A stretch of DNA of 64,000 bases from an uncultured Pseudomonadales bacterium (GTDB lineage Bacteria > Pseudomonadota > Gammaproteobacteria > Pseudomonadales > Porticoccaceae). This document shows positions 13,927 to 44,428 of this stretch, in pieces; the stretch's first letter is position 1, and every line of letters starts with the position of its first letter. The position numbers and the translations under genes were made by a program. Below the pieces are notes generated by a model. It ran no database searches. It was not told where the DNA came from and was given only the letters and a program-made list of their open reading frames with translations. The DNA lies in NCBI GenBank assembly GCA_963968025.1, contig CAXAFJ010000001.1, forward strand, positions 7,428 to 71,427, given 5' to 3'.

Positions 13927-14385
13927 GTCATCCCGACAGAGCCATCTATTCTGTCATCCCGACAGAGCGCAGCGACGAGGGATCTCCGGCTTGGGCGTGG
14001 GCAAATCCATGCAGACCCTTTGCGATCGGTCCCATGGGTTTGGTATTTCCAGCGTTCGCGCAACTCGCTTGCGCTCAAACAGGGCGCTCTCTTCACCTGA
14101 AAATAACAAACCCATAAGCGGGCCCTGATTGACCGCAAAGGGCCTGCATGGCTTCGCTGATAGATCGAGTACAACCCTGTCATCCTGAGAGAGCAAAGCG
14201 AACCGAAGGATCTCATAGGGGATTGCAGGGTAATGCGTTAGAGGCGGTACACCAAAGAGATCCCTCCACTGCGGTCGGGATGACAGAGTAGTGGCTTGGG
14301 ATGACAGTGGGTTGGTAAGGTAATAAATACCGACATCCCGACAGAGCCACCTATTCTGTCATCCCGACCGCAGTGGAGGGATCTC
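13927..14385. repeat. REP-like cluster downstream of gdh (4 full units, partial units, embedded long hairpin)
   Basis: Full units at 13952-13986 (+), 14178-14214 (+), 14257-14285 (-), 14357-14385 (+); partial units at 13927-13942, 14298-14306, 14332-14347. Confidence 0.9.
14007..14151. other. ~145-bp imperfect long hairpin (MITE-like or structured RNA)
   Basis: 14007-14027 pairs with 14131-14151 (19/21); atgggtttggtatttccag pairs with ctgaaaataacaaacccat (17/19); inner gcgcaa/ttgcgc stem at 14058-14074. Confidence 0.7.
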
Positions 14386-17193: not shown

Positions 17194-17250
17194 TCTTTAA
17201 ACTGTCAGCCTGAGAAAACCGCTTAATTTGTTATCCGGACGCCGCCATAT

Positions 17251-17284
17251 TGTCATCCCGGCAGAGCCGCGCGTCGAGAGATCT
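17251..17284 (+). repeat. Degenerate REP-like unit
   Basis: tgtcatcccggcagagccgcgcgtcgagagatct. Confidence 0.75.
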
Positions 17285-22204: not shown

Positions 22205-23286
22205 TGGCGAGTAGTATGAAAAAAGTATTGGTATTGCCGGGCGATAATATTGGCCCTGAGATTATTACTGAAGCGGTGAAAGTGCTTGAGACAGTTAATG
22301 AGAAATTTGGCCTAGGCATTGAGTTGGATTATGCCCATTTGGGTGGTGCGGCTCTGGATGCTGTTGGTGAGCCTTGCCCTAAGGAGACATTGGATAAGGC
22401 CCGTGCGTCTGATGCGATTCTGTTGGGCGCTGTGGGTGGTCCGCAGTGGGATGATGTGGAACGTCATCTGCGTCCGGAGAAGGGTTTGTTAACCATTCGC
22501 TCTGAGTTGGAGCTGTTTGGTAATTTGCGTCCGGCGATTATGTATCCGCAGTTGGCTCATGCCTCTTCGCTGAAGCCTGAGTTTGTTTCGGGTTTGGATA
22601 TTTTGATTGTCCGTGAGTTAGTGGGTGGTATTTACTTTGGTGAGCCGCGGGGTATTCGTACTCTGGAGAACGGCGAGCGTGAGGGTTACAACACGTATAA
22701 ATACAGTGAGTCTGAGATTCGTCGTATTGGTCGTATGGCGTTTGAGGCGGCGATGGTGCGCGGTAAGCGTCTCTGTTCGGTGGATAAGTCGAATGTGTTG
22801 GAAGCGACGATTCTGTGGCGTGAAGTGATCACGGCGATGGCGGCGGACTATCCTGAGGTGGAGCTGAGCCATATGTATGTGGACAATGCGGCGATGCAGT
22901 TGGTGAAGGAGCCTAAGCAGTTTGATGTGGTGGTGACGGGTAATATGTTTGGCGATATTTTGTCGGATACGGCGGCGATGTTGACTGGGTCTATTGGTAT
23001 GTTGCCTTCTGCTTCGTTGGATAAGGATGGGGGTGGTATGTATGAGCCCTGTCATGGTTCGGCGCCGGATATTGCGGGGCAGGGTGTGGCTAATCCTTTG
23101 GCGACGATTTTGTCTGTGGCGATGATGTTGCGGTATTCGCTGGATGCGGTTGAGGCTGCTGATGCGATTGAGGCTGCTGTTAGCACTGTGCTGGATCAGG
23201 GGTTGCGGACTGGTGATATTTATACCGATGGTATGACGCGGGTTGGTACGGTTGAGATGGGTGATGCGGTGGTGGCGGCGCTTTAG
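22204..23286 (+). CDS. leuB: 3-isopropylmalate dehydrogenase
   Basis: [53 protein letters not shown]; ATG overlaps leuD stop. Confidence 0.98.
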
Positions 23287-23401
23287 TTTGTGATACCAGA
23301 CTTTGAACGTCATCCAAGTTTTTGACTGTAATGCCATGCCATGCGAGTCTTTGACCGTCATGTCAGCGTAGCCTGGTATCTGTTTGGGAGTGGGCTGGAG
23401 G

Positions 23402-23755
23402 GAGATCCTTCGACTTCGCTCAGGATGACAGGCGTGGGTGGGATGACAGATTGGGTGTGATGACAGGCCTTAGTGGAATGACAGGCTTGTGTGCCATTCA
23501 GTCTAGCTACAGTGCTGTCATCCCGACCGGAGTGGAGGGATCTCATCAAGTTGGCAGAGACTCAGGCTATGGGTTCCCTGTTCAGGAGATCCTTCGACTT
23601 CGCTCAGGATGACAGGTGTGGGTCTGATGACAGATTGGGTGGGATGACAGACTTGGGTGGGATGACAGGCTTGGGTGGGATGACAGGCCTTAGTGGGATG
23701 ACATGCTTGGGTGGCATGACAAGTTGGATGGCATGACAAGTTGGACGGGATGACA
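23402..23755. repeat. REP-like cluster with tandem arrays of 17-18-bp units ending in GATGACA
   Basis: Identical gagatccttcgacttcgctcaggatgaca at 23402-23430 and 23586-23614; opposite unit at 23516-23544; 3 tandem units at 23431-23483 and 8 at 23615-23755. Confidence 0.92.
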
Positions 23756-23839
23756 GGTTATATACCGCGATCTCATAGGTAAGCAGTGGCGCTGAACAAC
23801 AAAAGAATTTAACCAAGATTTACAACAGGATTTAGAACA

Positions 23840-24952
23840 ATGAAAAAAACAGGATTTATAGGTTGGCGTGGCATGGTTGGATCTGTGCTAATGGAGAGAA
23901 TGCGTGAAGAGAACGACTTCGCCCATATAGAGCCAATTTTCTTCACTACGTCTCAGGCAGGCCAAACAGGCCCCGACGTCGGTGTTGAAATTCCTCTGCT
24001 GCAAAGCGCCTTCGATATCGACGCCCTGCAACAGATGGATATTATTGTTACCTGTCAGGGGGGAGATTACACCAAAGAAGTCTACCCGCAGCTGCGTAAA
24101 GCCGGTTGGGATGGCTATTGGGTTGATGCGGCATCAGCGCTGCGTATGGACGATAGTTCGATCATTGTGCTCGACCCAGTCAATATGTCTGTCGTTAAAG
24201 ATGGCTTGGCCAATGGCGTTAAAGATTATATCGGTGGCAACTGTACTGTGAGCTTGATGCTCATGAGTCTCGGCGGTCTGTTTAATGCCAATCTGGTAGA
24301 GTGGGCGAGTTCCATGACCTATCAGGCGGCCTCTGGTGCCGGTGCGCAGAATATGCGTGAACTGATCAATCAGATGGGGGTGATTAAGAACTCTGTGTCT
24401 GATGCTCTAGCCAACCCCAGTTCGGCTATTCTAGAAATTGATCGTCAGGTGACTGATACGCTGCGCTCAGATAGTTTTCCAGTGGACAACTGGGGCTATC
24501 CTTTGGCCGGTAGCCTGCTGCCTTATATTGATTCACAACTTGAAAACGGTCAGAGCCGTGAAGAGTGGAAGAACCAGGCGGAGACTAACAAAATCTTGAA
24601 TCGCGAAGGCAATCCTATTCCTCTGGATGGTCTCTGTGTCCGCATTGGCTCCATGCGCTGCCACAGCCAGGCTCTGACCATTAAGCTGACCCAGGATGTG
24701 CCTATGGATGAAATCGAGTCCATGTTGGCTGAGGGAAATCAGTGGGCCAAGGTGATTGCCAATGATAAAGAGTCTTCGGTTAAGCATTTAACGCCTGCGG
24801 CAGTCACCGGTGGTTTGGATGTTCCGGTTGGGCGGTTGCGTAAAATGAATATGGGTGAACAGTACCTCTCTGCGTTTACCGTGGGTGATCAGCTTCTGTG
24901 GGGGGCGGCTGAGCCCGTGCGTCGTATGCTCAGAATTCTGATTGAGGATTAA
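23840..24952 (+). CDS. asd: Aspartate-semialdehyde dehydrogenase
   Basis: [50 protein letters not shown]. Confidence 0.98.
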
Positions 24953-25113: not shown

Positions 25114-27627
25114 ATGACAATTCGGACGTGGTCGGCGTTTTTTATCCAGGAGTCTGGGCAACAAAATAAGCATAGCTCCCTTAAAAAGCTTGGCGACATT
25201 ATACTTGCTCAGTTCAAATACAGCCTCAAATTAGCCGTTGTTACCAGTGCCATATTGATCTCTGCCCTGGCGACAATACCCTCCGCCTTTGCGGTGGGTT
25301 TGGGTGAGATTACAGTTAATTCGTCTCTCAATGAGCCTCTTGCCGCGCATATCCAAATTATCAATTCCAGCGACCTTCAAGATAACCAAATTCTTGTATC
25401 GCTGGCCTCTGCTGAGGCTTTTGAGCGGGCGGGGGTGAGTCGGGATTTCTTTCTAAGCCGCCTGCAGTTTTCGGTCAGTCGAGACAGTTCCAATCAGCGT
25501 ATTATCAACATTGTTACCCAACAGCCAGTTGTCGAACCCTATCTCGATTTTTTGGTCCAGTTGCAGTGGCCCGAAGGTCGTGTGATGCGCTCTTACACGA
25601 TGCTCTTGGACCTGCCTATCTACCGTGAAGATCAATCATCTGCTGTGCAAGTTGCACCGCCAGTGACAGGTAATCGCGCTAGGCCCTCAGCGCCAGCGGC
25701 GATTGCGAGAGTTGATCAAGTGGCACTGTCTGGTGATCAACATCAGGTAATAGTTGGCGACACGCTGTGGAATGTAGCCAAGCGTCTGCGTCCTCGTGGT
25801 ACCACTATCCTTCAGACCATGGATTCGCTCTATGAGCAAAACGCCACAGCCTTTTCCGATGGTGATGCCAATCGTTTGATGGAAGGGTCGGTTTTGCGGC
25901 TGCCGTCGAGGGATGAAATTAGTGAGCAGGCTGGCGATATGGTGGCTTCACAGATTGGTCTTGTGGCTCCGCTTGAGCAAGCAGCGGCTAATGATGATAT
26001 CGAGATTATTTATAGCGACGAGTATGATTCCGAGCAGACTCTCGAGCAGGTGGCAGATACTGATGCGCGTTTACAGCTGGTCTCTGCCTCTGATCAAACT
26101 GCAGAAGATGATGCCATTGCCGGCAGTGTAGATCTGTCAGAGTCTGACTCTGACTCTCTTGGTACTCTGGATTCTTCTGGATCAGAAACCGCTCAGCAGC
26201 TGTCTTCGGATCTGGCTATTGCCAATGATGAAGTCAACAAAGTACAGCTTGAAAACACTGAACTCCGCGAGCGTTTAGTGCTGTTGGAAGCTCAGGTTGC
26301 CGCCATGGCGGCCCTGGTTGATCAGGCCCAAAAACAAGCCGATATTGATCGTGGTGCGGTGGAGACACCTAAGTCTGAGGACGATCTCAGTGCCTCACTA
26401 CTGGCGGTTCCAGTCTATTTCTGGGGAGCCTTGATCGCGCTTGTTCTGCTCTTGGCCGTCTTAGTGATGCGCAGGTCTTCTGCCTCGCGACGAGATGATG
26501 AGGCTCTCGGCGACCTGTCTATGGGCAGTTATGAAGGCTACGATAAGGGTGCGCCGAGTAATGCCACTGCCGCGGCAACCCTCCATGAGCTCGATGACCT
26601 AGAGTTGGATCCAGACGACGATCTGTTCGACGAGAGCGATACCGAGATCTTTGACAGTGCTGAAGAAACTGTCAATGAAGAGGTTTTCGATATGATGGTC
26701 GAGGCGGTAGCTGAGGCAGAGGTTTACCTCTCCCTGGGCAATACCCAGCAGGCAATTACCGTGCTTGAAGACGCCCGTGCGCAAGATAGCGCCGATGCTT
26801 CGTGCCGTTTAAAGCTTATGGAGATCCTATTCTGGGAGGGCCGCAAAGATGAGTTGCGTCCGCTGTATAACGAAATCGTGTCAACAGAGGATAGCGCCGC
26901 CATTGAAATGGCTGCCATTATTGCAGGGCTGGAGAGTGGGCCTGTTTCGACTCTCGAAGAGGGTGCCAGTGATCTGGGTTTAGACAGCCTTGAGCCAATA
27001 GACAGCCCTGAGCTAAACGATAGCCTTGAGCCAATAGACAGCCCCGTCTCAGATTTGCCGGGTCTCGATACTCAGCACCCAGAGCTCAAGGATCTTGGCT
27101 TCTCCGATAGCGAGCTAAGAACCTTTGAGTTAGAGGATCTGGATATAGATGCATTAGATATCCAGGACTTTGATATTGAGGTAGATGAGTCGCCACTAGA
27201 TTCGACAGTATTGCAGTTCCCTGGTGGTAACGAGCTCAACCGGGAGCTGGATGAGATGTTTGCTGATTTTGATGCAGAGGCCTCGATTGCAGAGCCCTCA
27301 GCCACAACTGTAGAGCCCTCAGCTACAAATCTAGAGCCCTCAGCCACAAATCTAGAGCCCTCAGCCACAAATCTAGAGCCCTCAGCCACAACTACAGAGC
27401 CCTCAGCAGCGGAACTTGCGGCAACAGTAGAGCCTTCGGCAACTGACGGATTGAGCGCTCTAGATGATATCGACAGCCTCGACGCCGCCGAGATCAAACT
27501 GGACCTGGCTAAAACCTATATTGAAATGGGTGACCCAGAAGGTGCAAAGGAGATTCTCGAAGAGCTACTTGGCGAAGCCGATGAAGAGGGCAAGGCCAAG
27601 GCGCGAACGCTGCTCGATACTCTTTAG
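25114..27627 (+). CDS. fimV: FimV/HubP family polar landmark protein
   Basis: GLGEITVNSSLNEPL, VVEPYLDFLV, LysM GDTLWNVA, TM helix, acidic region, C-terminal KLDLAKTYIEMGDPEGAKEILEE; between asd and truA. Confidence 0.92.
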   Translation: MTIRTWSAFFIQESGQQNKHSSLKKLGDIILAQFKYSLKLAVVTSAILISALATIPSAFAVGLGEITVNSSLNEPLAAHIQIINSSDLQDNQILVSLASAEAFERAGVSRDFFLSRLQFSVSRDSSNQRIINIVTQQPVVEPYLDFLVQLQWPEGRVMRSYTMLLDLPIYREDQSSAVQVAPPVTGNRARPSAPAAIARVDQVALSGDQHQVIVGDTLWNVAKRLRPRGTTILQTMDSLYEQNATAFSDGDANRLMEGSVLRLPSRDEISEQAGDMVASQIGLVAPLEQAAANDDIEIIYSDEYDSEQTLEQVADTDARLQLVSASDQTAEDDAIAGSVDLSESDSDSLGTLDSSGSETAQQLSSDLAIANDEVNKVQLENTELRERLVLLEAQVAAMAALVDQAQKQADIDRGAVETPKSEDDLSASLLAVPVYFWGALIALVLLLAVLVMRRSSASRRDDEALGDLSMGSYEGYDKGAPSNATAAATLHELDDLELDPDDDLFDESDTEIFDSAEETVNEEVFDMMVEAVAEAEVYLSLGNTQQAITVLEDARAQDSADASCRLKLMEILFWEGRKDELRPLYNEIVSTEDSAAIEMAAIIAGLESGPVSTLEEGASDLGLDSLEPIDSPELNDSLEPIDSPVSDLPGLDTQHPELKDLGFSDSELRTFELEDLDIDALDIQDFDIEVDESPLDSTVLQFPGGNELNRELDEMFADFDAEASIAEPSATTVEPSATNLEPSATNLEPSATNLEPSATTTEPSAAELAATVEPSATDGLSALDDIDSLDAAEIKLDLAKTYIEMGDPEGAKEILEELLGEADEEGKAKARTLLDTL
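27292..27408 (+). repeat. In-frame 21-bp tandem repeat (EPSATNL-type, ~5.5 copies) in fimV
   Basis: gagccctcagccacaaatcta consensus; also a 26-bp DSLEPIDSP duplication at 26983-27008 and 27019-27044. Confidence 0.92.
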
Positions 27628-36167: not shown

Positions 36168-36364
36168 GAGCCTCAGCTATTTTGGGGGGAGCCTCAGCTA
36201 TTTTGAGGGAGATCCTTCGGCTTCGCTCAGGATGACAAAATATACGTTGTCATCCCGACCCACATTACGTTTTCATCCCGACCCACATTACCCTGTCATC
36301 CCGACCGCAGTGCAGGGATCTCATCCAGTCGGCACAAGATCCTTCGAGTTAGCTCAGAATGACA
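36168..36364. repeat. REP-like cluster between convergent msrA and enoyl-CoA hydratase
   Basis: 17-bp exact duplication at 36168-36184 and 36189-36205; units at 36209-36237 (-), 36294-36322 (+), 36337-36364 (-); two 23-bp partial units at 36248-36293. Confidence 0.9.
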
Positions 36365-44300: not shown

Positions 44301-44428
44301 GGTTCGAGATAACAGCGTTGGGTTCGAGATGACAGTGTTGGGTTCGAGATGACATAAAGCTACATTGTCATCTCGACAGAGCGCAGCGGCGAGAGATCTC
44401 CCCCCTCAATTGGCTGATAATCATTGTC
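44301..44428. repeat. Tandem 20-bp inverted terminal units followed by REP A plus extension; right copy of the direct repeat
   Basis: ggttcgagat(a/g)acag(c/t)gttg x2.7 at 44301-44354; tgtcatctcgacagagcgcagcggcgagagatctcccccctcaattggctgataatcattgtc at 44366-44428. Confidence 0.9.

Follow-up and report, generated by a model that had tools for sequence, protein, structure and literature searches.

The gap between two plus-strand open reading frames, one ending at position 23286 and the other starting at 23840, holds a cluster of short hairpin repeats with tandem arrays attached to one of their ends. It lies in what we call the window, the whole 64,000-nt stretch of DNA analyzed here, from an uncultured marine Pseudomonadales bacterium of the Porticoccaceae. 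From our reading of the sequence, we take the first frame to be leuB-like and the second to be asd-like. Within the gap (23287-23839), two exact copies of a 29-nt unit of subtype A (GAGATCC..GGATGACA) occupy the plus strand at 23402-23430 and 23586-23614, and the stem of this unit covaries across its family. Each copy is followed on the same strand by 17- to 18-nt copies composed of a linker, an arm remnant, and ATGACA. Array 1 (23431-23501) has three such copies, read from the sequence at 23431-23448, 23449-23465, and 23466-23483, and then one decayed copy (TRF period, 18; 3.6 copies). Array 2 (23615-23755) has eight (TRF period, 18; 8.6 copies; score, 162). The original prediction had counted two identical units with three and eight copies, and both the sequence and TRF bear this out. 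Also, copy types appear in like order in the two arrays (ggYgtgggt.., gattgggtg.g, and ggccttagtgg..), as predicted, with array 2 holding two extra units in between.

Between the two arrays, an inverted subtype B unit (23515-23544, minus strand) points its tag toward array 1 and is diverged, being 83% complementary to the A unit. A 41-nt spacer (23545-23585) follows, across which the B unit and the second A unit face each other by their non-tag (GATC) ends, with tags outward. The unit-plus-array block of 93 nt recurs at a spacing of 184 nt with 89% identity. Inverted tgtcat-like units had also been proposed at about 23300 to 23365; two decayed tag-like remnants (cgtcatcc and ccgtcatg, minus strand) do lie within 23300-23369, but they are weak, with only a 71% arm match. 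The 29-nt unit also has a one-mismatch copy at 36209, versus 0 unit matches expected from shuffles, and GGATGACAG occurs 16 times in the window versus 0.28 times expected. An Rfam search of the locus matched no family. Nearly all of the 17- to 18-nt copies between 23431 and 23755 contain GGGTGGG, creating a long plus-strand run of close G3 tracts.

Other units in the window carry tail copies too. On the minus strand, a subtype C unit (13953-13984) has one extra 26-nt tail copy (13927-13984 in all), a subtype B unit (14358-14383) has one extra 26-nt copy that bears a C-type arm (14332-14383), and another subtype B unit (36295-36320) has two 23-nt tail copies (36243-36320). On the plus strand, 14259-14306 holds a subtype B unit followed by a single additional tail copy of 21 nt. 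A 33-nt unit with two decayed tail copies (17204-17283, minus strand) represents an old array, because the closest relative sharing the leuB-asd locus, G072, has it as well. Finally, the 20-nt copies at 44301-44354 (plus strand), which carry a GTTCGAG arm, form an orphan array that has no parent unit upstream and faces an inverted unit at 44366-44398; units with the GTTCGAG arm are found in contig C68 of the same assembly and in relatives.

Arrays are one-sided across the genome

The assembly under study (G000; 2.45 Mb in 166 contigs) contains approximately 100 to 116 hairpin units, the number varying with the strictness of the search pattern. They fall into four main subtypes of 27, 27, 33, and 35 nt, and all of them share the same two ends, GAGATCC and GGATGACA. 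Inverted partner units are common, and tandems of whole units (44 to 59 nt) are also present.

Of 96 usable units, 31 have TRF arrays over the flank on the ATGACA side, versus 5 of 96 with arrays over the opposite flank (Fisher, 1.6e-6), and these five are unrelated arrays or the property of a neighboring unit. When each unit was walked outward, at least one extra copy was found in 36 of 116 units, with a maximum of five. Arrays are present in all of the repeat-rich genomes of the genus, defined as those with at least 17 units (16 of 79 genomes, the remaining 63 being repeat-poor). A three-fold search with the 5'-end motif AGATCC returned 0 in every one of these repeat-rich genomes, and the reversed-pattern control for tag arrays returned approximately 0. 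The arrays are thus confirmed to be real, far from chance, and general. They always abut the TGTCAT/ATGACA end, as had been anticipated from the single locus, and they are local re-copies of that end of the element.

Anatomy of the unit and of the copied piece

The anatomy of the copies was drawn from 183 arrays in G000, its relatives, and other phyla. The array period has a median of 22 nt (interquartile range, 20 to 23 nt). Upstream of ATGACA, the copied arm (median, 7 nt) is the 3' side of the hairpin, and copies begin where the loop meets the arm (offset mode, 0/+1). The linker has a median length of 9 nt, is mostly 6 to 11 nt, and is variable within one genome. In G000, the flank past ATGACA is conserved to approximately +11 (G at +1 in 66%, T at +4 in 73%, and G-rich from +6 to +10) and has no information content beyond that point; because of this conservation after the tag, the linker can be recognized as mostly the element's own tail. 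Each copy is the half of the element on the side that published Ssn nucleases cut (see below), comprising the 3' stem arm, the ATGACA tag, and approximately 9 nt of tail, and not a terminus plus foreign flank. The earlier estimate of a copied piece of 9 to 12 nt plus flank must therefore be replaced by this larger piece, which takes in the whole 3' arm. Past the last copy, signs that the linker begins anew were mixed, with no clean phase.

The hairpin itself has a 5-bp outer stem, a 2x2 TC/TC internal loop that is invariant, one covarying pair farther in, and a loop of 6 nt. Interiors in other subtypes measure 18 to 20 nt. Compensatory changes are evident at pair 7-22 (CG in 72 units and TA in 10), at pair 8-21 (TA in 41, CG in 38, and CA in 3), and at pair 11-18 (GC in 48, CG in 24, and AT in 8). 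The hairpin has little stability as DNA (-1.4 to -4 kcal/mol), and the two strands are alike in this. The combination of a conserved sequence with a covarying stem points to recognition by a protein. Hairpin stability as such was rejected as the cause of one-sidedness, since the top and bottom strands fold equally weakly.

Relationship to known repeat families

The units are a divergent family of CGTC/TGTC-tagged REPs, the kind called NTS or Ssn-related motifs (NTS/SRM). Repeats of the CGTC-tagged class, described by Di Nocera, De Gregorio, and Rocco in 2013 and including Neisseria dRS3 and Rickettsia RPEs, often have TGTC as their tag, begin their stem with A-T, form dimers, and have no known dedicated transposase (PMC3733652). 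The present units share the unpaired tag (TGTCAT is invariant in 82 of 82 units of the 27-nt class), the A-T, T-A stem start (pair 4-25 is AT and pair 5-24 is TA in 82 of 82 units), high copy number (approximately 100 units in 2.45 Mb), an extragenic location, inverted dimers and clusters, the absence of any known dedicated transposase, and variable tail-to-tail spacers. However, the stems of 8 to 9 bp and loops of 4 to 5 nt reported for CGTC-tagged REPs are not seen here, and those REPs are reiterated in tandem as whole units or dimers, whereas the arrays described here reiterate half a unit (PMC3733652).

Likeness to the NTS/SRM repeats extends to the oriented (C/T)GTCAT tag, which is TGTCAT here and fits the HGTCWY head, and to the C directly after the palindrome (GGAT and then C in 82 of 82 units). 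Moreover, as in the present system, NTS/SRM repeats have hundreds of extragenic copies, a repeat-flanked GIY-YIG gene encoding approximately 94 to 100 aa, and co-occurrence of gene and repeat (PMC11893778). The units differ from them in the 5-bp outer stem, the TC/TC internal loop, and the long interior. The published degenerate SRM search string matched 0 of 110 units, with a genome total of 11 versus 13 to 21 in shuffles. This repeat is a divergent variant, and an Ssn homolog of its own goes with it.

Two other comparisons are informative. REP/BIME and REPIN-RAYT systems also have inverted doublets of short extragenic palindromes and tandem blocks of whole doublets (here, two blocks at 184 nt, and three in G072), but the GTAG tag is missing from the present units, and the arrays here repeat half an element. 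Bacterial minisatellites, or VNTRs, share head-to-tail units of 17 to 28 nt, copy numbers that vary in close relatives, and decaying edges; here, in contrast, each array is anchored at one end of a dispersed hairpin and carries its arm and tag. A limited literature search found no description of these arrays. In the main text of the paper on NTS and Ssn, the words "tandem" and "duplication" are absent and one-sided half-unit arrays go unmentioned (PMC11893778). The one-sided array is, apparently, an undescribed feature on a known kind of element.

A candidate Ssn-type partner

Ssn nucleases (CDD cd10448) were described in 2025 by Chenal et al. as GIY-YIG proteins of approximately 94 aa whose genes are usually flanked by their own repeats (PMC11893778). 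They bind folded NTS/dRS3-type repeats as single-stranded DNA only, and only on the CGTCAT-first strand; in Neisseria, cutting takes place upstream of the tag at a distance of 3 nt and requires a further 6 nt past the cut site, and Ssn accepts site halves in trans (PMC11893778).

In G000, a 100-aa GIY-YIG open reading frame on contig C120 (488-790), matching Pfam PF01541 (67.6 bits, positions 2 to 76 of 78), has array-bearing units on either side. We regard this single-domain GIY-YIG nuclease of the Ssn type as the candidate partner of the units, and it supplies a real candidate for the nuclease cleavage that had been suggested as a check at the array boundary. For the C120 protein, NCBIfam gave no match above its cut-off, and no relative was found in the PDB. 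Homologs of 93 to 100 aa, named "GIY-YIG nuclease family protein," occur in the Porticoccaceae and in distant phyla. The catalytic-type residues Y8, Y19, and E66 are invariant in 17 homologs, as are an Arg and a His, and the three are equated with Neisseria Y6, Y17, and E64 by motif position, not by direct alignment. The C120 gene reaches its stop codon within a repeat unit, and that unit thus encodes the final codons. Also, a copy of the last ~40 nt of the gene, approximately 80% identical by eye, precedes the unit upstream of the gene (the two stretches concerned are 140-198 and 730-790 of C120), which suggests that the gene tail and the unit move or convert together.

A strong Ssn-like homolog is encoded by 12 of the 16 repeat-rich genomes versus 0 of the 63 repeat-poor genomes of the genus (nominal P, 4e-11), a statistic that ignores kinship and overstates the association, because related genomes are not independent. 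The four repeat-rich genomes without the gene are 71 to 95% complete. In the relatives G047, G001, and G051, the Ssn-like gene adjoins arrays. Every array lies on the side where published Ssn enzymes make their cut, which on the tag-first strand is upstream of the tag. The known role of Ssn nucleases is in Neisseria transformation.

Change between relatives and spread across phyla

G072 is the closest relative in which the leuB-asd locus is shared, with flanks approximately 90% identical. Its locus has three blocks (with 2, 2, and 6 copies) versus the two blocks of G000 (with 3 and 8), and the 41-nt spacer recurs in all three. This comparison agrees with the proposal that the REP-plus-array block was duplicated and that the copy number then changed. 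A comparison of copy numbers across strains had been suggested as a check, and between G000 and G072 they differ at most orthologous loci; further examples are 3 versus 1, 1 versus 2, 0 versus 1, and 2+ versus 1. These gains and losses are not confined to the unit-proximal end. One locus (L211/C22) is a candidate 0-to-1 seed event, with a flank too diverged for the junction to be read. Within arrays, unit-proximal copies are closer to the unit terminus than distal copies are in 33 arrays versus 3 (Wilcoxon, 3e-6), and in 20 versus 4 when the edge copy is dropped (binomial, 0.0015). This proximal likeness is suggestive: it fits new copies being born beside the unit, or homogenization against the unit.

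In other relatives, the leuB-asd gap holds a different mobile hairpin element or a 30- to 40-nt spacer alone, and because of this, the repeat cluster in G000 can be called young. Comparable arrays are present in relatives assembled as single or few contigs, namely, G080 (2.21 Mb), G047 (2.96 Mb), and G072. In one replichore of G080, 27 units are on the plus strand and 26 are on the minus strand. The long arrays in that replichore are all plus (5 of 5), the other replichore also holds a plus array, and G047 is mixed. The distribution of units along the single 2.21-Mb contig of G080 (G080:C1) is strongly nonuniform: a single replichore holds 53 of the 70, most of them in the stretch from 0.8 to 1.43 Mb, close to the terminus inferred from skew (~1.5 Mb).

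When one genome per species was scanned for three GGATGACA tags spaced 17 to 25 nt apart, a gap range that limits the periods seen, at least 120 array loci were found in many phyla. The matches include Nitrospirales, Fibrobacter, Chloroflexota, Bacteroidales, Clostridia, Coxiellaceae, Rickettsia, Acidobacteriota, Gemmatimonadota, Saccharibacteria, Omnitrophota, Treponema, Eremiobacterota, and others. A full hairpin unit lies directly upstream in 68 of the 83 matches inspected. Among the matches listed, 5 of 120 loci have an Ssn-like gene within 8 kb. When five diverse genomes with arrays were examined, four proved to encode such a gene and one did not.

Canonical NTS-type repeats (tag GGAATGACG) sprout likewise in 26 of 401 sampled Gammaproteobacteria, compared with one genome in the reversed-pattern control. 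The complementary 5' arm is upstream of the first copy in 15 of 20 of these loci inspected, and linkers are mostly 4 to 13 nt.

How the arrays may arise

The arrays record a local tandem duplication of the cut-side half that is polar and recurrent, with later changes in copy number. As to what drives it, we propose, with a probability of about one-half, that Ssn cleavage or binding triggers one-sided arrays on tagged hairpins and that slippage then expands them; here, the trigger and the repair route are what we infer. Under this proposal, an Ssn cut, or tight binding, outside the tag on the exposed tag-first strand would cause the cut-side half to be copied again locally, starting at the hairpin loop and continuing across the 3' arm and the tag to the end of the ~9-nt tail. 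Such re-copying would seed a tandem duplication. Ordinary slippage or unequal exchange might then expand, contract, and homogenize the array, with copies far from the unit left to decay.

The geometry of the junction constrains this proposal. A simple nick-extend-reseal or run-off model with a Neisseria-like 3-nt cut predicts 3-nt linkers, whereas the observed linkers are mostly 6 to 11 nt. An array junction that coincides with the Neisseria cut, at 3 nt from the tag, is therefore not supported, even on canonical NTS-type repeats, given the linker lengths there. The ~9-nt linker equals the 6+3 nt of the Neisseria requirement, and so the copied unit may match the enzyme footprint and not the cut. 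Further points weigh against an Ssn explanation as well: no Ssn-like gene is seen in four repeat-rich genomes or in one of the five array-bearing genomes from elsewhere, the units fail the published SRM string, gains and losses are not only unit proximal, and an array, once seeded, can grow without any enzyme. The original prediction had invoked repeated nick-primed synthesis or slippage at the element end; its observation is confirmed, its interpretation is partly supported, and its mechanism is plausible in outline.

A doubtful but not negligible alternative is that no nuclease acts at all. A folded repeat or a bound protein would stall synthesis arriving from the tag side, the nascent end would realign a short distance back, and slippage would expand the result. 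The end of the copied piece at the hairpin loop fits such stalling, and the minisatellite-like behavior of the arrays, with interior gains and losses between relatives, fits too, as does a genome generally rich in short tandem arrays (468 with a period of at least 10 nt). Nevertheless, because the hairpins are weak and strand symmetric, structure alone explains neither stalling nor strict one-sidedness, and a purely structural stall is unlikely. The near-equal strand counts of units in one replichore of G080 likewise reveal no clear replication-strand bias.

It is less probable still that selection maintains the arrays as extra half-sites, each offering a cut site, a tag, and a first arm, which could pair with the single distal arm and multiply or tune Ssn binding and cleavage at the locus. 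The match between the ~9-nt linker and the length needed for cutting in Neisseria would suit this idea. It sits poorly with the decay of distal copies, with copy number, period, and linker sequence that vary freely across loci and relatives, and with orphan arrays that have no parent unit.

Mobilization of the units by a Y1 transposase of the RAYT or IS200/IS605 type, with arrays as products of abortive copy-out or paste-in, is very improbable. The right end of IS608 consists of a hairpin followed by an end approximately 10 nt past the hairpin foot, a geometry that the arrays resemble, and G000 does have a single, RAYT-like Y1_Tnp gene (contig C37, 1165-1869, minus strand). However, the repeat found on either side of that gene is a different one, GACCCCATTGATC (1100-1160 and 1930-2070). 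Moreover, Y1_Tnp is missing from the repeat-rich genomes G031, G047, G051, and G042, the first three of which are near-complete, and it is present in repeat-free genomes of the genus. RAYT/IS200-type mobilization is rejected on these two grounds, and with it the initial reading of the elements as classical REPs, the family not being of the GTAG/RAYT kind. Finally, that the arrays are artefacts of short-read assembly is scarcely credible: many G000 arrays do lie at contig ends, but all units of the eight-copy array differ from each other, G072 has the orthologous array, and megabase contigs of G080, G047, and G031 have arrays in their interior, as do many unrelated assemblies.

Our preferred reading, in which Ssn action seeds the arrays, can be taken a step further, although only tentatively. 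Ssn may act on the cell's own chromosome, each cut or stall templating one more cut-side half, such that minisatellites are born in a polar, enzyme-driven manner; the resulting half-site arrays might then alter the frequency or place of cutting, creating a self-reinforcing intergenic hotspot beside genes. If Ssn does seed the arrays, a one-sided scar at its cut side, recurring in many phyla, would give the first sign from genomes that Ssn acts on chromosomal DNA in vivo, and it would account for the "variable tail-to-tail spacers" of tagged REPs. Array birth at a defined end would provide a simple readout of Ssn activity. Also, the process would widely generate intergenic tandem repeats that change fast, and it would contribute to breaks between contigs when metagenomes are assembled.

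Other repeats in the genome and genus

Several observations concern repeats beyond the tagged units. The 468 short tandem arrays of G000, counted at a period of at least 10 nt and a TRF score of at least 50, make this genome very rich in such sequences, and short tandem arrays form the ends of many of its contigs. A second set of arrays has an AGAGCC(C/T)T(C/G)AGC-like core with locus-specific periods, in the window at 26981-27043 and 27291-27407 and on many G000 contigs. The GACCCCATTGATC repeat beside the Y1_Tnp gene on C37 also has short partial tandem copies of its end (CATTGATCC). Finally, the leuB-asd spacer of G002, G006, and G010 contains a long hairpin element of approximately 145 nt that is unrelated to the tagged repeats. 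Because it is also found after another gene, at 14007-14151 of the window, we consider it a second mobile intergenic element of the genus.
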